Assembly (NCBI GenBank): GCA_018027755.1
Contig: GCA_018027755.1_4098.1
From: a phage
DNA length: 64,000 nt
Strand: one strand, 5' to 3'
Below are positions 7,988-15,428 of this stretch, one piece after another. Both the position numbers and the translations under genes were made by a program. The notes under the pieces are model-generated. The model had not been told where the DNA came from. It saw nothing but the letters and a program-made list of their open reading frames with translations, and did not search any database. Position 1 is the first letter of the stretch. Each line of letters begins with the position of its first letter.

Positions 7988-8968
7988 ATGGCTAAAAAAA
8001 TTAATGAAGCACAAGTTAAAATCGATATCGCAGGTTTAGAATCTGATGATTTGGAAACTCTATCACGTATGTTAGCTCTTGCTGGTCAAGCTGAACGTCA
8101 AGACCCAGTAGTTGCCGCTCCAGTACCATCTATGGGGTCTATGACTCCATCTCTTCCACCTATTGCTCCACTAGATCTCGATTCTATTGGTGCTGAAGAA
8201 GAAATTGGTGGAATTGAAACTTCAGTTGAAGACCCACTAGCAGCGGCAGTTGATGATCTTTCCGCTGATGTTGGTGATTTTGGTGCTGACACAGATGAAG
8301 TTAGTATGGATGCTGAATTTTCAGAACCAGGTGTAGAAGGTGAAGAAGATTTTTCTCTTGACCTTAGTGGTCAACCTCAACTAGAATCAGTTGAAGAAGA
8401 CGATGAGGAAGAAGAAGAAATTATTGAAGAAGAATTCGATTTTAGTCGTATGCTATCTCTTGCTGGTATTAACGAAGAAGAAGACGAAGATTTTTCAGTA
8501 GAGGGTAATCCTGCTACCGATAAAGAAATGAAAGATACCCAATTTCTACCAGATCTAAGTATCTCTGAAGATGAAGAACCATCTAACAGTACTGATTATG
8601 GTCCATATGATACAGAAGCTGATGCCGTTCGTGATGGTCAACTAAAGACTAATGGTGTTGAAGGTGACCATTTTGTTGTAATTGCAAAAGGCAATCAATT
8701 TTATTGGAGACGTGTTGTAGATGAAGATCTTGACAATCGTCCAGAACCTGAGTATTATGATAATGAAGGGAACGAAAATCGTGTTCATAAATTTGAACCA
8801 AAATTCCCAGGCACTGCATTAGGAGATAACCCACTAAATGTTAATGAAAGTGAAGAAGATGATTCACCTGAAGGTAACATTGACTTGGAAGATGATTCTG
8901 ATGAAGAAGTAGAAGATATTTTTGAAAGTCTCCAAGAAAAATACAAGAAATTTTTAGGAGACAAATAA
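7988..8968 (+). CDS. highly acidic, low-complexity protein
   Basis: Very D/E-rich; repeated motif SRMLALAGQ / SRMLSLAGI; no fold recognised. Confidence 0.45.
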   Translation: MAKKINEAQVKIDIAGLESDDLETLSRMLALAGQAERQDPVVAAPVPSMGSMTPSLPPIAPLDLDSIGAEEEIGGIETSVEDPLAAAVDDLSADVGDFGADTDEVSMDAEFSEPGVEGEEDFSLDLSGQPQLESVEEDDEEEEEIIEEEFDFSRMLSLAGINEEEDEDFSVEGNPATDKEMKDTQFLPDLSISEDEEPSNSTDYGPYDTEADAVRDGQLKTNGVEGDHFVVIAKGNQFYWRRVVDEDLDNRPEPEYYDNEGNENRVHKFEPKFPGTALGDNPLNVNESEEDDSPEGNIDLEDDSDEEVEDIFESLQEKYKKFLGDK

Positions 8969-9749: not shown

Positions 9750-9773
9750 GAAAAAATGAATTAAAAATAAATG

Positions 9774-9801
9774 TTGACAAGATAGAATGATGTGATACAA
9801 T
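9774..9801 (+). promoter_or_regulatory. sigma70-type promoter P1 (TTGACA-16-TACAAT)
   Basis: TTGACA, 16-nt spacer, TACAAT preceded by TG (extended -10). Confidence 0.55.
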
Positions 9802-9866
9802 AAGCATCAGACATAAAGTTTTCAAGCGACACAAGATGTGAGTTTGAAAAAAAAGAAAAAAAGTGA

Positions 9867-9894
9867 TTGACAAGTTGAAACGATGTGATATAAT
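9867..9894 (+). promoter_or_regulatory. sigma70-type promoter P2 (TTGACA-16-TATAAT)
   Basis: TTGACAAG..GATGTGATATAAT; shares the GATGTGATAyAAT box with P1. Confidence 0.6.
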
Positions 9895-9993
9895 GTTCAC
9901 ATCAAGACAGCAAAGAGATTTACCTTTTAAACACACGGATGATTCATGAAGTAACAAAGGAACTGATAAGTTAAATTATTTTAACACAGTTCC

Positions 9994-10022
9994 TTTACTT
10001 TTGCCCACGGATTGGCTATAAT
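9994..10022 (+). promoter_or_regulatory. putative promoter P3 (TTTACT-17-TATAAT)
   Basis: Good -10 TATAAT, weaker -35; overlaps a 10-bp inverted repeat AAAGGAACTG/CAGTTCCTTT. Confidence 0.35.
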
Positions 10023-10063
10023 AGAAACTTAAACGATTTTATCCAACAAAAGGAAATATATAC

Positions 10064-11389
10064 ATGACTACTCAAAACGATATCCTGAACGTTAAACTGA
10101 CTCCAAAGAAAGCTAAAGAAGCAATGGCACTAGCTGACATGATTCAAGATAGCCTGATGATTTGGGGTAGCCCAGGTATCGGTAAGTCTGCAATCGCTCG
10201 TCAATACGCTGATGAAAATTACCCACTGCGTAAAGATAACGTAGCTAAAATCGAGTTCATGAAACAACAAATCGAAGCTGACCCTGAAAATGCTGATCAG
10301 CTACGCCGTGAACTGGCTGCATTTGAAGCAAAACTAATCGACCAAGATACTAACTTTATCGATTTCCGTTTGTCTCAAATCGAACCAAGTGACCTTCGCG
10401 GTATTCCAGTACCAGAGAAGCTTTTCCGTAAAACTGACGGTTCTCTTCTGAAAGAATCTGAGCTTGCCGAAGCAAAAGATTATGTAGCTGAAACTGCGGT
10501 AGTATGGGCTGCACCTAAAGTTCTGAAATTGTCCGAAGATTGGAAAGGTGTTATTCTGTTTGACGAAATTAACTCTGCAATGCCTATTGTTCAGGCAGCG
10601 TCTTATCAGCTAATCCTCGACCGTTGTGTTGGTGAGATGAAGCTACCTAAGACTGCACTGATTCTTGCAGCAGGTAACCGTGAAACTGATGGCGGTGTAA
10701 CTTTCTCTCTTGCTACACCACTGCGTGACCGTATGACTCACATTGAGATGATTCCTTATCATCAAGATTGGATTAACGATTATGCGATTGCAAAACGTTT
10801 GAACCCAGCAACTGTTGCGTTCATCAACAACACTGGTTCTAAGTACTTTAACACACTTAGTCCACAAGATCCTTCTCACAGTGGTGGTACTTCTCCACGT
10901 TCATGGGAAGCAGTAGCACGCTACGAAGATCTCAAGAAAACTAAGACAATTGATAAAGAAGTGTTCCGTGCAATGATTGCTGGGCGTGTTGGTGAAGGTG
11001 TTGCAACTGAATACATTGAGTACGTTGAGAACGTTGCTAAACTACCAGATACTATGTCTATTCTGTCTGGTGAAATCAAAGAAATCGACGCAACGCTGGA
11101 TATTTCTGCGAACTACTTTATCACTCTGAACTTGGTTTATAAAATTATCGACCTGTTCAATGAGAAGCAAGAACAACGTCTACCAGTGGAAGAATGGGGT
11201 AAACTGTGTAACAACTTCATCACCTTCCTAGACCATAACTTCTCTGCAACTCAAGCAGAACTGGCAGTACTGGCAATTCGTACCATCACGCTTCATAAGG
11301 TTGCGATTTCCATTAAAGATGTACCAGCGTTTAAAGATTTCATCGCTAAGTACTCTGAACTTGTACGTAAAGCACGCTCTCTTGGCTAA
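10064..11389 (+). CDS. MoxR/CobS-like AAA+ ATPase
   Basis: Walker A GSPGIGKS, Walker B ILFDEIN, sensor AAGNRE, Arg finger region RDR; RBS AAGGA upstream. Confidence 0.8.
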   Translation: MTTQNDILNVKLTPKKAKEAMALADMIQDSLMIWGSPGIGKSAIARQYADENYPLRKDNVAKIEFMKQQIEADPENADQLRRELAAFEAKLIDQDTNFIDFRLSQIEPSDLRGIPVPEKLFRKTDGSLLKESELAEAKDYVAETAVVWAAPKVLKLSEDWKGVILFDEINSAMPIVQAASYQLILDRCVGEMKLPKTALILAAGNRETDGGVTFSLATPLRDRMTHIEMIPYHQDWINDYAIAKRLNPATVAFINNTGSKYFNTLSPQDPSHSGGTSPRSWEAVARYEDLKKTKTIDKEVFRAMIAGRVGEGVATEYIEYVENVAKLPDTMSILSGEIKEIDATLDISANYFITLNLVYKIIDLFNEKQEQRLPVEEWGKLCNNFITFLDHNFSATQAELAVLAIRTITLHKVAISIKDVPAFKDFIAKYSELVRKARSLG

Positions 11390-11463
11390 TTAACAAAGAG
11401 TTGTTGACAAGAAGGATGCCTAATGGTATCCTTCTTTTATCTTAACTAAACGAGGAAATATAC

Positions 11464-12888
11464 ATGTCAGATAACAAATCTACTTCCAGATTCAATGAAG
11501 TATCTCCGGCACTCCAGAAAGAATGTCAAGATCGTCTGGTTCTGGCTCGTACATCTTTGATGTTAACTGCACCATTCTTTGGTGTACTCGCTTCACGTTT
11601 ACGTCCAGTTCCTAATAATACATGGTGTCGTACTCTAGCAGTTGATGGTAAACATCTATTCTACAACGTAGAATTTGTAATGGGTATTCAAGACCCATCT
11701 AAAAAGAAAGAATATGAAGAAGCTATTCGTGAAAAGCATCCTGAAGTTACAGACGAACAATTAAAAGAAATGACTGAAGGTTTGACTGATGAAAACCTTA
11801 TTGCTGTAATTTGTCATGAAATTCTACACTGTGCTTACGATCACTTCCTTCGTCGTGGTATGCGTGATCCACAACGTTATAACCGTGCAGCGGATTATGC
11901 CATTAACCAAATCATCGTTCGTGAGAAAATTGGAAAAATCCAAAGTTCATGGTTGTATGATAAAAAATATGAAGGTATGACCGCAGAAGAGATTTACATT
12001 CTTCTTGAAGAAGAAGAACAAAAAGAAGATGGTGAAGGTGAAGGTCAACCACAAAGTGGCGGCGGTGAAGGTGAAGGTAAAAATCGCGGTACTTTTGGTG
12101 ATATTAAAGATGGTAAGGGTAAACCAAAAGGTACTACCATTGACCAGCATGACGTTCCACAAGAAGGTCAAGAAGGTGGTTCAAGTGAACAGCAAAAACG
12201 TGATTATATGGATGATTTCAAAACAGCAATGATGAATGCTGCACGTGCAGGTGGTACACCAGCAGAAATCGCTCGTATGATTAACAACTTTAAAGAACCA
12301 AAGATTGACTGGCGTTCAAAACTTCAACGTACACTTCGTAGTTGGTTGAAGTCTGATGCAACGTATCAAAGTCCTTCTCGTCGTTCATGGGGTGCTGGTT
12401 TTGGTTCTAATGGTTCATTCTATGGTAATCCAATTTACCCAGGGATGAAACCAGATGATGATATTGATATTGCGATTGCACTAGATGCTTCTGGGTCTAT
12501 TTCTGAAGATATGCTTCGTGATTTCATTAGTGAAGTTCTTGGCATCACTAAACAATTCAAACAGTTTAAGATTCGTATCATGACTTTTGATACTGAAGTT
12601 TATACTGTAAAGGATTACAAAACTGGCGAAGAACGTAAGATTCTGGAATATCCAGTAAAAGGTGGTGGTGGTACTGACTTTGAAGCAGTATGGGTTCATA
12701 TGAAGAACGACAACTACAAGCCTAAACAGCTTGTAATGTTTACTGATGGTGAACCGTGGCAGTCATGGGGTGATCCAAACTACTGTAAAACACTGTTCGT
12801 GATTCACAGTAACCCAAATAAAGTTGCACCATTTGGTGAGACTGTACACTACGAATATGAAGCTGATAAAAAGCGTCAACGTAGTTAA
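11464..12888 (+). CDS. VWA-domain protein with N-terminal HExxH zincin-like motif (CobT-like / DUF2201-like partner of the ATPase)
   Basis: HEILH motif; MIDAS DASGS and downstream FTDGEPW; Gly/Glu-rich linker EGEGQPQSGGGEGEGK; RBS GAGGA. Confidence 0.7.
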   Translation: MSDNKSTSRFNEVSPALQKECQDRLVLARTSLMLTAPFFGVLASRLRPVPNNTWCRTLAVDGKHLFYNVEFVMGIQDPSKKKEYEEAIREKHPEVTDEQLKEMTEGLTDENLIAVICHEILHCAYDHFLRRGMRDPQRYNRAADYAINQIIVREKIGKIQSSWLYDKKYEGMTAEEIYILLEEEEQKEDGEGEGQPQSGGGEGEGKNRGTFGDIKDGKGKPKGTTIDQHDVPQEGQEGGSSEQQKRDYMDDFKTAMMNAARAGGTPAEIARMINNFKEPKIDWRSKLQRTLRSWLKSDATYQSPSRRSWGAGFGSNGSFYGNPIYPGMKPDDDIDIAIALDASGSISEDMLRDFISEVLGITKQFKQFKIRIMTFDTEVYTVKDYKTGEERKILEYPVKGGGGTDFEAVWVHMKNDNYKPKQLVMFTDGEPWQSWGDPNYCKTLFVIHSNPNKVAPFGETVHYEYEADKKRQRS

Positions 12889-12898
12889 GTACTAAATA

Positions 12899-12930
12899 AA
12901 GAGAACGGAATTTTCCGTTCTCTTCTTTTA
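12899..12930 (+). terminator. intrinsic terminator after VWA gene
   Basis: GAGAACGG-AATTTT-CCGTTCTC followed by TTCTTTTA. Confidence 0.6.
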
Positions 12931-12934
12931 TAAG

Positions 12935-12963
12935 TGGGACAACTTATAAAAATATGATATAAT
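12935..12963 (+). promoter_or_regulatory. putative extended -10 promoter
   Basis: TGATATAAT (TGnTATAAT) upstream of ORF 12998-13243; -35 weak. Confidence 0.35.
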
Positions 12964-13245: not shown

Positions 13246-13902
13246 ATGGCAGCTATTCGTCATGTTGGTGTAATGCGTAATACAGGTTCTCGTGTTTTTG
13301 TTGTTTGGCGTTCACTACCAGATGATCCTGAACACTGCCTTATCGTTTATCGTGATTCACTACCAGAAGCATATGTTCACGCAGTAACTGATATTGTTAT
13401 GGGTCATGGTCAATCTAATATTGATTTGTGGGAAGTAATGCATAAAATTGGTTATCTCGATGGACGCAAAATGCTAGATGTTCTACACAACATGCAGCAT
13501 CTACGTCGCGTTCGTACTTGTGACATTGATATGCACACTGGTGGTAATAATAAAATTTCTCTTGATGTTCTAAACAAAGCATTAGATGAAAATCAAGCGA
13601 AAGTACAAGAAGATGGTAAAGTAAAAGACTTTAACCCATTCAATCCACAAGAAGCAGACACTAAAGTAGAAGAAGCTACTATTGTAGAAAAACTTCTCTC
13701 TGATGCACAAAAATATGAACAACTGGCTAAAGAACATTATGAACGTGCATACAATTTAGAGCCAAGCTTGCGTCCGCAAACACAAGTTGTTGAACAACCG
13801 AAAGATAGTAAAACAATTTATCTAGAAATTCCAGAAGGTATTTCACAGACTAAAGCTATTGAGAAAGTAAAACAACTATTTGCAGAACGTAAAGCAAAAT
13901 AA
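13246..13902 (+). CDS. hypothetical protein
   Basis: AGGAG RBS; no fold recognised. Confidence 0.4.
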   Translation: MAAIRHVGVMRNTGSRVFVVWRSLPDDPEHCLIVYRDSLPEAYVHAVTDIVMGHGQSNIDLWEVMHKIGYLDGRKMLDVLHNMQHLRRVRTCDIDMHTGGNNKISLDVLNKALDENQAKVQEDGKVKDFNPFNPQEADTKVEEATIVEKLLSDAQKYEQLAKEHYERAYNLEPSLRPQTQVVEQPKDSKTIYLEIPEGISQTKAIEKVKQLFAERKAK

Positions 13903-13905
13903 AAT

Positions 13906-14499
13906 ATGAAAAAGAATGAATTAGATGAAGCAATTAAAGGTTTATCTAATGTATGTTTTAGTGGCGGGGCAGCAGGTGCTGACCGCCTTTTTTCTATCTA
14001 TGCAAAAAATAATGGATTTGAAGTTATTAATTTTTCATTCAAAGGTCATGAGCATAGTGTAGATGAAAGTACTATATTAGAAATACCATCCAATATTCTA
14101 TCTGATATTTCTATATTAAATCAACTAAACATTGCATGTTACTCGTTGCAGCGAAAAGTACCAAAGCCTGGTTCTTATGTTTACAACTTACTTGCAAGGA
14201 ATAGTTATCAGATACTTAATACAGAAAGAATATATTGTATTGCAAATATCACATCACCAACTAAGGTAAGTGGTGGTACTGCATGGGCAGTACAGATGTA
14301 TATGGATTCAGTTGAAAATCCTGAAATTTATTGTTATGATATGAATTCACGTTCAGTATTTTATTTCGATACAGTACTGAAAGAGTTCACACAAACATTC
14401 GTCGTTCCAGCACCACATGGTAACTGGACTGGTATTGGTTCACGCAATGCCACCGAAAAACATATGGAACATTTTATTACATTTTTCAAGGAAGAATAA
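13906..14499 (+). CDS. hypothetical Rossmann-like protein, possibly SLOG/DprA-like
   Basis: N-terminal motif FSGGAAGADRLFS resembles the glycine-rich motif of SLOG-superfamily proteins; stop overlaps the thymidylate synthase start. Confidence 0.3.
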   Translation: MKKNELDEAIKGLSNVCFSGGAAGADRLFSIYAKNNGFEVINFSFKGHEHSVDESTILEIPSNILSDISILNQLNIACYSLQRKVPKPGSYVYNLLARNSYQILNTERIYCIANITSPTKVSGGTAWAVQMYMDSVENPEIYCYDMNSRSVFYFDTVLKEFTQTFVVPAPHGNWTGIGSRNATEKHMEHFITFFKEE

Positions 14500-15428
14500 T
14501 GAAACAACTACAAGAACTATATCAAAAAATTCTAGATGAAGGCGTAGAAAGCGTTGACCGTACTGGTGTTGGAACAATCAAACTTATCGGTCAACAAATG
14601 CGTTTTGACCTTAAAGATGGTTTCCCAGCAGTGACGACAAAACGTCTAGCTTGGAAAGCAATGACTTCAGAATTACTATGGTTTATTGAAGGTTCCCATG
14701 ATGAGCGTCGCCTTTGTGAAATTTTGCATGGAACTCGTGATACAGAAAAGAAAACTATTTGGACAGATAATTACCTAAATCAAGGCGTTGCTCTTGGTTA
14801 TACTGATGGTGAGTTAGGTCCAGTGTATGGTAAGCAATGGCGTGAATGGGAAGATTATAAATTTAGTTCCAGTACTGAAGAAATTCAAGAATTAAAAGAT
14901 AAAGGATACAAAGTTATCGATTATACTGGATCGCATGGTGTTGTTATGAAACGTACAACTGACCAATTACAGGAACTAATCAAAGGTATAAAGTCCGATC
15001 CATATGGTCGTCGCCATATTCTAAGTGCATGGAACGTTGGTGAGCTTGATGATATGACGTTACCACCTTGTCATAGCTTTGTACAATTTTGTGTAGTACA
15101 AGGGAAACTAAGCTGCATTCTACATCAAAGATCCGCTGATCTATTTTTGGGAGTTCCATTTAATATCAGTAGTTATTCACTACTAACTCATATGATTGCA
15201 CAAATTACTGGTTTAGATGTTGGTGAATTTATTTGGAATGGTGGTGATTGTCACATTTATAAAAACCACGTTGAACAAGTAAAAGAACAACTACAGCGAA
15301 AACCTCGTGAATTACCTGAATTGTGGCTTGATCCTACAATTACTAATATTGAAGATTTCACTATGGATTCTTTTAAATTAGTGAATTACAACCCAATGCC
15401 AACAATTAAAGCACCTATGGCTGTATAA
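14499..15428 (+). CDS. td: thymidylate synthase (uninterrupted, no intron)
   Basis: Active-site LPPCHSFVQFCV, QRSADLFLGVPFNISSYSLLTHMIAQ, GGDCHIYKNH (Asn retained, dUMP-type), C-terminal IKAPMAV. Confidence 0.9.
   Translation: MKQLQELYQKILDEGVESVDRTGVGTIKLIGQQMRFDLKDGFPAVTTKRLAWKAMTSELLWFIEGSHDERRLCEILHGTRDTEKKTIWTDNYLNQGVALGYTDGELGPVYGKQWREWEDYKFSSSTEEIQELKDKGYKVIDYTGSHGVVMKRTTDQLQELIKGIKSDPYGRRHILSAWNVGELDDMTLPPCHSFVQFCVVQGKLSCILHQRSADLFLGVPFNISSYSLLTHMIAQITGLDVGEFIWNGGDCHIYKNHVEQVKEQLQRKPRELPELWLDPTITNIEDFTMDSFKLVNYNPMPTIKAPMAV

Follow-up and report, generated by a model that had tools for sequence, protein, structure and literature searches.

What is the task of a gene pair that encodes an AAA+ ATPase next to a protein with a zincin-like peptidase domain and a VWA domain? 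The question is raised by positions 9,774 to 12,930 of a stretch of phage DNA of 64,000 nucleotides (nt), from NCBI GenBank assembly GCA_018027755.1, contig GCA_018027755.1_4098.1. The whole stretch is called the window below. The module is with high confidence an independent unit of two genes in a 121Q-like jumbo phage, composed of a MoxR-class ATPase and a zincin-like VWA partner.

Over its 3.2 kb, the region shares 99.9% identity with jumbo phages of Asteriusvirus (Rak2-like), among them Escherichia phage 121Q, phAPEC6, SP27 and G17. The ATPase gene corresponds to gp563 of 121Q and to gp265c of phAPEC6, which has the GenBank note “MoxR ATPase”. The partner gene corresponds to gp564 and gp264c, the latter with the note “N4 gp25-like protein”. 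The RaK2 annotation likens the two genes to N4 Gp24 and Gp25. The module is thus already annotated, and it has been published as a kind: Iyer et al. 2021 described the pair in jumbo phages (subgroup 2.2) and, taking Acidianus two-tailed virus as the analogue, proposed that it takes part in the assembly and proteolytic processing of virions. The window itself reveals nothing beyond the existing annotation. What is new here is the architecture of the operon, with its tandem promoters, leader hairpin and internal terminator, and a set of residues for mutation.

The ATPase and its partner

The initial annotation had described an AAA+ ATPase followed by a partner protein, and both open reading frames (ORFs) lie where it placed them. 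The Walker A, Walker B and arginine-finger motifs of the first product are intact, as claimed. The features of the ATPase gene are as follows.

10064-11389, + strand: MoxR-class AAA+ ATPase (121Q gp563 / phAPEC6 gp265c / N4 gp24 family, phrog_1297), an ORF of 441 aa
10166-10189, + strand: Walker A of the ATPase, GSPGIGKS, residues 35-42
about 10553-10573, + strand: Walker B of the ATPase, ILFDEIN, residues 164-170
10229-10348, + strand: two-helix insert of the ATPase, specific to the Rak2 lineage, residues ~56-95, after the Walker A helix and before beta2

Further motifs are a sensor-1 residue (N205), PLRDRMTH with R223, and GGTSPRSW with R279. R223 is presumably an arginine finger of the LxDR(F/M) type, and R279 is taken to be a sensor 2 of the SPR type. 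Among 69 homologues, with identities down to about 33%, the motif residues are invariant or nearly so, and R223 and R279 are invariant. The computed mass of the protein is 49.51 kDa.

The ATPase had been called “MoxR/CobS-like”. It is a MoxR-class AAA+ protein and not a CobS, as its motifs, its structural matches to NorQ and CbbQ, the Pfam families of its relatives and its pairing with a VWA protein indicate. The AlphaFold model has a mean predicted local distance difference test (pLDDT) score of 87 and a predicted template modelling (pTM) score of 0.80. When this model was compared with the PDB by Foldseek, the best matches were NorQ alone and NorQ-NorD complexes (E 1.8e-7 to 1e-6), together with CbbQ2, and NorQ filled 11 of the first 15 rows. 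The next structural matches were the helix-2-insert AAA+ proteins NtrC1, McrB, RuvBL and dynein. In the model, a long beta-hairpin (114-149) lies between beta2 and beta3, and short strands (187-196) precede beta4.

Searches by sequence are less specific. The PDB sequence and family-profile searches gave matches at the level of the P-loop (Midasin best, E 3.4e-4; p97) and nothing beyond the superfamily. In PHROGs, the ATPase belongs to phrog_1297 (E 3e-107), the family that also holds gp24 of the N4-like phage G7C and the “MoxR ATPase” of rV5-like phages. The Pfam families AAA, AAA_3, AAA_5 and Mg_chelatase were all below threshold on the window ATPase. The scores of AAA_3 (PF07726), 16.7-19 bits with a cut-off of 27, and of AAA_5 (PF07728), 17.9 bits with a cut-off of 22 even when the insert is removed, count against the MoxR assignment. 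They are low in part on account of the two-helix insert. PF07726 and PF07728 are present in more distant members of the family (P0099-P0117), and a bacterial homologue from a Chromatiaceae chromosome (CP037918) passes the AAA_5 threshold with 42.6 bits.

The insert itself comprises about 40 confidently modelled residues. Rak2-like phages have it, and the rV5-like and N4-like homologues do not. It could serve as a docking surface specific to this lineage.

The second gene follows on the same strand.

11464-12888, + strand: zincin-like and VWA protein (121Q gp564 / phAPEC6 gp264c / N4 gp25 family, phrog_1314), an ORF of 474 aa
about 11497-12012, + strand: N-terminal peptidase-like domain of the partner, containing HEILHCAYDH
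11815-11844, + strand: HEILHCAYDH of the partner, with HEILH at residues 118-122
12013-12186, + strand: disordered Gly/Glu-rich linker of the partner, residues ~184-241, pLDDT <50
about 12463-12855, + strand: VWA domain of the partner, with the DxSxS of its metal-ion-dependent adhesion site (MIDAS) at 12484-12498

All the parts that had been noticed in this protein, namely HEILH, the Gly/Glu linker and a VWA domain with an intact MIDAS, are present. Pfam, which had been proposed as a check on the zincin-like domain, places DUF2201_N (PF13203, “putative metallopeptidase”) there with E 2.7e-34 (119.5 bits, cut-off 23.2). DUF2201 (PF09967, VWA-like) follows with E 7e-21 (75.1 bits, cut-off 26.4), and the two families together span the whole protein. 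Fold searches with the model of the partner returned the VWA fold. The PDB sequence and family-profile searches gave marginal matches to integrin I-domains and nothing beyond the superfamily. No NCBIfam or PADLOC-DB profile matched either protein (PADLOC at E <= 0.01).

Conservation was assessed in an alignment of eight sequences, from Rak2-, rV5-, PVP-SE1-, N4- and PA5oct-like phages, the Chromatiaceae chromosome and a Brucella element. In the N-terminal domain, H118, E119, H122, H127, R130 and D144 are invariant. The motif of peptidase type thus reads HExxHxxxxH, and an Asp (D144) on the following helix is conserved. The MIDAS is complete, with the segments ALDASGS (339-345), GGGGT (400-404) and FTDGE (426-430), in which D341, S343, G344, S345, G403, T404 and D428 are invariant. 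The same holds for P304, R306 and P326. A loop at 297-333 (PSRRSW) is conserved as well.

The N-terminal domain resembles known peptidase families at the level of the motif, with Pfam matches to PhageMetallopep (E 0.0054) and M48 (E 0.039). An hhalign comparison with an M48 peptidase gave a probability of 65% over just 25 columns. A further label, “T4-gp25-like”, was found to be unsupported for this protein; the intended reference is N4 gp25.

Promoters, hairpins and expression

The leader of the ATPase gene and the sequences around the partner gene contain several signals that may govern how much of each protein is made, and when.

9754-9801, + strand: promoter P1, with an A-rich upstream tract, TTGACA at 9774-9779, a 16-nt spacer and TG-extended TACAAT at 9796-9801
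9819-9850, + strand: hairpin within the initial ~40 nt of transcripts from P1, UUUUCAAgcgaCACA-aga-UGUGagUUUGAAAA, free energy (dG) -10.8 kcal/mol, z -3.4
9847-9894, + strand: promoter P2, a 48-nt duplicate of P1, with TTGACA at 9867-9872, a 16-nt spacer and TG-extended TATAAT at 9889-9894
9956-10003, + strand: leader hairpin, a 10-bp outer stem and an inner stem, then UUUACUUUUG, dG -15.2 kcal/mol, z -4.3
9994-10022, + strand: candidate promoter P3, TTTACT-17-TATAAT, 10/12 consensus positions, overlapping the 3' side of the leader hairpin
11409-11436, + strand: intergenic hairpin resembling an intrinsic terminator, then UUUUAUCUU (U-run), dG -18.6, z -6.8
12899-12924, + strand: terminator-like hairpin and U-run closing the unit, dG -18.2, z -6.7
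12936-12963, + strand: promoter-like site of the next transcription unit, GGGACA-16-TGATATAAT, the downstream boundary; TGATATAAT is kept in RaK2

The initial annotation had proposed three tandem promoters, two of them near-identical elements of the form TTGACA-16-TAyAAT. These two are indeed there, P2 lying about 2 nt from the implied position. P1 matches the sigma-70 consensus at 11 of 12 positions and P2 at all 12, each with TG at -15/-14, and they form a 48-nt direct repeat that includes the A-rich UP-like tracts. Exact matches to TTGACA-N16-TAYAAT occur twice in the 64 kb, both times here, compared with a chance expectation of 0.12, and none of 100 shuffles contained at least two. The case for P1 and P2 as sigma-70 promoters is statistically compelling on these counts, far above chance. 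P3 is plausible as a third promoter, given its 10 of 12 positions.

P1 is kept as far as the Klebsiella phages RaK2 and Muenster. P2 is present in Asteriusvirus and absent from RaK2 and Muenster, and is therefore a recent, lineage-specific duplication of P1. P3 is kept in Asteriusvirus, and its -10 element is degraded to TATCAT in RaK2. The Shine-Dalgarno region of the ATPase gene is conserved.

The sigma-70 consensus would suggest early timing for the unit. In the CBB paper, RpoD-like promoters with UP elements were predicted to be early. The host sigma-70 RNA polymerase could thus transcribe the unit from strong tandem promoters, before the late genes or independently of them.

The TG-extended -10 motif ATGTGATAYAAT recurs in the window, with eight sites at one mismatch or fewer (9790, 9883, 12952, 16055(-), 33954, 40345(-), 53772 and 61821). 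By chance 2.6 would be expected, and none of 100 shuffles had as many. Several of the sites lie just 5' of ORF starts, and they are probably a class of phage promoters used by the host RNA polymerase. A CRP-type operator was also considered, from TGTGA...TCACA around the -10 element of P2. It was rejected: its spacing is 8 nt and not 6, and TH47 does not retain it.

A 10-bp inverted repeat had been reported in the leader, and it was found at 9956-9965 / 9987-9996, where it forms the outer stem of the leader hairpin with 100% complementarity. By eye, the stem is retained in RaK2 through a matched 1-nt deletion in each arm. RNAalifold found no formal covariation on a MAFFT alignment in which the RaK2 stem is misaligned (off register). 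Lying between P1/P2 and the ATPase gene, the leader hairpin may act as an attenuator, a terminator or a processing site, and transcripts from P3 would start downstream of it. The smaller hairpin at 9819-9850 lies between P1 and P2, is followed by an A-run and is kept within Asteriusvirus. A search of the whole window against Rfam gave no family at gathering score, and the leader gave matches at chance level.

Another possible control would act on translation. The segment CCUUUU in the P1/P2 leader (9923-9928) can pair with the Shine-Dalgarno sequence AAAAGG of the ATPase gene (10049-10054), and the leader fold has a z of -3.1. Transcripts from P3 would be without this partner of the Shine-Dalgarno sequence. 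Both segments are invariant in six phages, and their pairing may be a translational control of the ATPase gene.

Although the promoters and the inverted repeat had been recognized, the strong hairpin between the two genes had been overlooked. It is kept in RaK2 with one compensatory double change (G-C to U-A) and one change from G-U to A-U. The partner gene is without a good promoter of its own, and so it is probably expressed by read-through, which would give more ATPase than adaptor. The conserved terminator-like hairpin would probably raise the ATPase over the adaptor in this way, as a 6:1 complex would need. At the position of the closing terminator, RaK2 has a different hairpin and T-run.

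Occurrence and possible role

A tblastn search with the partner gave 618 phage records. They include Rak2-like jumbo phages, Vequintavirinae (rV5, PVP-SE1), N4-like Schitoviridae, PA5oct-like phages and Bacillus phage G. In a scan of bacteria with one genome per species, a homologue of the partner was found at 47 loci in bacteria or metagenome-assembled genomes. In 42 of these, the ATPase homologue precedes it on the same strand; the other five comprise three contigs of <1.5 kb and two with only ~2.5 and 4.7 kb of upstream sequence. The pairing of ATPase and VWA protein also occurs in N4-like, rV5-like and PA5oct-like phages. In N4-like phages, gp24 and gp25 are listed among the conserved core genes and are middle genes (PMC4193335).

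The Chromatiaceae copy of the pair (CP037918) is embedded among ordinary chromosomal genes: ribBA, an aldolase, an M48-TPR peptidase and SoxA. The pair is therefore an old cellular and viral module, not an invention of phages. At this locus (L040, 6923-10814 and 14196-16337), the gene for the M48-TPR (BepA-like) peptidase comes directly after the pair, and a second, larger VWA protein is encoded nearby. These genes are possibly a functional neighbourhood of the bacterial pair.

In the rV5-like lineage the pair is split, with the MoxR ATPase about 3.5 kb away on the opposite strand. There, the VWA-zincin gene comes after a gene annotated “anti-sigma factor” (L012:4984-5961 in Bas59; L009:3803-4678 in PVP-SE1). 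This gene is closest in PHROGs to the HNH-labelled phrog_3118, with weaker matches to Srd / sigma-70-decoy families.

In the window, the unit directly adjoins a late structural block on its 5' side (tail sheath, tail tubes, head closure and virion proteins). On its 3' side are two small ORFs, a DprA-like SLOG protein and thymidylate synthase. The G+C content of the ATPase gene, 0.424, is the highest among the 45 ORFs of the window (mean 0.348, sd 0.030), and that of the partner gene, 0.392, is the third highest. Strong constraint, high expression or a foreign origin could each account for this.

By analogy with related machines, the two proteins may form an ATP-driven device that is targeted by its MIDAS and remodels or cleaves other proteins. 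The chances of this are put at about even. In this model, the ATPase would form a hexamer that docks on the VWA domain, as in NorQ-NorD, CbbQO and Midasin. The metal site of the MIDAS would grip an acidic residue of the target protein. Rotation or pulling driven by ATP would then pass through the linker and remodel the target, and the attached zincin-like peptidase domain would cleave it.

The target may be a host protein, so that the pair would have an accessory role in counter-defence or takeover. This part of the reading is held tentatively, at somewhat less than an even chance. Such a role is judged more likely than an essential step of virion assembly because of the sigma-70 promoters, the middle-gene status of the N4 homologues, a viable knockout in an rV5-like phage and a phenotype towards the defence system DS-28.

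The last two points come from the Vequintavirus Bas54. In the HIDEN-SEQ preprint (10.1101/2025.11.20.689424), bas54_0063, a MoxR ATPase, and bas54_0140, a protein of 99 aa, are needed specifically against DS-28, which is predicted to be a defence system of E. coli CFE311. The knockouts were studied by plaque assays on K-12 derivatives expressing defence systems, and bas54_0063 is dispensable on K-12. MaxBurger is another name of Bas54, and its bas54_0063 is the ATPase of the rV5 type. An orthologue 97.8% identical to it belongs to phrog_1297 and shares 24% identity with the window ATPase over 383 residues (E 4e-33). The other protein, bas54_0140, is not the VWA-zincin partner but a small unrelated protein, and a search for its homologue in the window found none. 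Nothing on the ATPase/VWA pair was found in the PA5oct transcriptome paper (its supplements aside), the RaK2 genome paper, the CRISPRi-ART paper, two preprints on transposon sequencing (Tn-seq) of phages or a 2026 review of jumbo phages.

An unlikely but far-reaching extension is that the pair is a widespread counter-defence machine of Rak2-like, rV5-like, all N4-like and other phages, which would seize a host immune or stress protein via the MIDAS and cleave or dismantle it. If this is true, the pair would be a new mechanistic class of anti-defence, and the sensitivity of the rV5-like ATPase knockout to DS-28 would be its first visible phenotype.

Several observations weigh against a host-directed remodelling protease. 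In the preprint, the sensitivity to DS-28 is described for the ATPase and bas54_0140 and not for the VWA-zincin partner, and this ATPase shares only 24% identity with that of the window. For the N-terminal domain, a zincin fold is supported at the level of the motif only and did not appear in the fold-search lists, which are filled by VWA proteins. The compact VWA model of the partner has no obvious “finger” that could be inserted into a pore. The breadth of the pair, which belongs to the core genes of all N4-like phages and was found in 618 phage records, suggests housekeeping more than a counter to one defence. The position of the unit directly after the block of tail and head genes favours assembly, as does the virion proteomics of phAPEC6, in which the ATPase gp265c is present (49.52 kDa, 6 peptides, 19% coverage; PMC7247149).

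The last three of these observations also speak for the explanation proposed by Iyer et al. 2021, in which the pair is a chaperone for virion assembly and a maturation protease, helping tail or head to fold or assemble and cleaving structural proteins. A precedent given there is the MoxR (p618)/VWA pair of Acidianus two-tailed virus, which is needed for tail development. This explanation also seems unlikely on balance. The rV5-like ATPase knockout plates normally on K-12, and the N4 homologues are middle genes. The promoters have the sigma-70 consensus and are not of the T4-like late type predicted for the structural genes of Rak2-like phages (PMC5259590). The partner gp264c is absent from the phAPEC6 virion list, while thymidylate synthase, the counterpart of 14499-15428 in the window, is on it with 3 peptides, so that carry-over of abundant non-structural proteins is likely; also listed are a 218-aa protein (13246-13902; 25.02 kDa, 1 peptide) and a very acidic 326-aa protein (7988-8968; pI 4.05) (PMC7247149). 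The cellular copy among ordinary chromosomal genes does not fit an assembly factor either. A role in the maturation of an enzyme is improbable to a clearly greater degree. Here, the pair would resemble a chelatase or activase that inserts a metal or cofactor into a phage or host enzyme or reactivates it, and HExxH would mark a module that handles or binds metal, not a protease. The candidate clients are enzymes of nucleotide metabolism encoded nearby: genes for thymidylate synthase or dCTP deaminase are linked to the pair in both N4-like and Rak2-like phages. The closest solved structures also belong to such systems, NorQ and NorQD to nitric-oxide reductase and CbbQ (CbbQO) to Rubisco, and the partner has the layout of NorD. 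Yet HExxH with an invariant Glu is the catalytic signature of zincin peptidases and is strictly conserved, and the Pfam neighbours of the domain are peptidase families (PhageMetallopep, M48). Moreover, no client enzyme varies together with the pair across lineages, and the neighbours in rV5-like phages differ.

Two other identities have been suggested by names in earlier descriptions. The pair might be a CobS/CobT cobaltochelatase, an auxiliary metabolic gene pair as in cyanophages. In its favour are the pairing of AAA+ ATPase and VWA protein in general and a weak Mg_chelatase match that is limited to the P-loop (E 0.006, below threshold). But neither protein matches CobS, CobT or CobT_C (Pfam to E 10, NCBIfam), and neither falls into any functionally characterized family in Pfam, NCBIfam or PADLOC. 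The partner is a DUF2201_N/DUF2201 protein with a peptidase motif that is absent from CobT, and the best structures for the ATPase are NorQ and CbbQ. The CobS half of the original name is hardly credible for these reasons. Still less can be said for the second gene as an HNH endonuclease, which is how RefSeq (NC_025447 gp564) and PHROGs (phrog_1314) label it and which has practically no chance of being right. Pfam finds no HNH domain, DUF2201_N and DUF2201/VWA cover the protein, and the fold is that of VWA. In the N4-like phage G7C, gp24 and gp25 are separated by an inserted homing endonuclease that is a true HNH protein (L010:3967-4443), and the label may have spread from there.

For the remodelling and cleavage machine, the target is the decisive point. 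Finding it would give a function to a conserved pair of phage “dark matter”, whose proteins are among the few that very different large lytic phages have in common. It would also decide between assembly and a host-directed role, and it would show how a MoxR ring couples to a protease.

Comparison with known systems

Among known systems, the closest is gp24 and gp25 of N4, together with their counterparts in rV5-like and Rak2-like phages; they belong to the same two families as the window pair. The G7C proteins gp24 and gp25 match phrog_1297 and phrog_1314 at E 4.5e-134 and 7.3e-144, and G7C gp24 is 30% identical to the window ATPase. The N4-like pair shares the gene order, the invariant HExxHxxxxH and MIDAS residues and the nearby genes of nucleotide metabolism. 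It differs in that the Rak2-lineage ATPase has the extra insert of about 40 residues after the Walker A helix, and in that the window partner has a longer Gly/Glu linker and, ahead of the HExxH helix, about 40 additional residues. Likewise, the N4 middle genes use the phage RNA polymerase II, whereas the window unit has host sigma-70 promoters.

The best structural match of the ATPase model is NorQ-NorD, a chaperone for metal insertion into nitric-oxide reductase (PDB 9qh4, 9qh8 and 9qhd), with template modelling (TM) scores of 0.54-0.63 when normalised to the target. In the NorQ-NorD structures, a “finger” of the VWA domain is inserted into the MoxR pore, and the linker is stretched while the ring turns the VWA domain (PMC13036017). 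The MIDAS or the linker of NorD touches acidic residues of the client (PMC13036017). NorD consists of an N-terminal domain, a flexible linker and a VWA domain, which is also the arrangement of the window partner. The sequence identity is only 12-15%, however, and NorD is without a peptidase motif. Counterparts of its pore-inserting finger and its C-terminal contact were not identified in the window partner, and its client, the membrane protein cNOR, is irrelevant to a phage.

A similar principle is established for CbbQ-CbbO and Midasin/Rea1, in which a ring of the MoxR/AAA_5 type acts via a MIDAS VWA domain, and this domain holds the client by an acidic residue (see also PMC13036017). CbbQ2 (6l1q) is among the top structural matches of the ATPase model, and Midasin is its best match by sequence profile. 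These systems differ from the window pair in having no peptidase domain and other clients, and their sequence similarity to it is very low. The MoxR (p618) and VWA proteins of Acidianus two-tailed virus are likewise a pair encoded by a virus. They too are without a peptidase domain, and the comparison is one of architecture.

An example for the coupling of an AAA+ motor to an HExxH zinc peptidase can be found in the FtsH-type proteases, which process selected proteins. The window pair is not a member of the FtsH family, and the analogy is functional only. FtsH combines both activities in one polypeptide, belongs to another AAA+ clade and threads its substrates, whereas in the window unit the peptidase-like domain sits on what would be the VWA adaptor of a MoxR ring.

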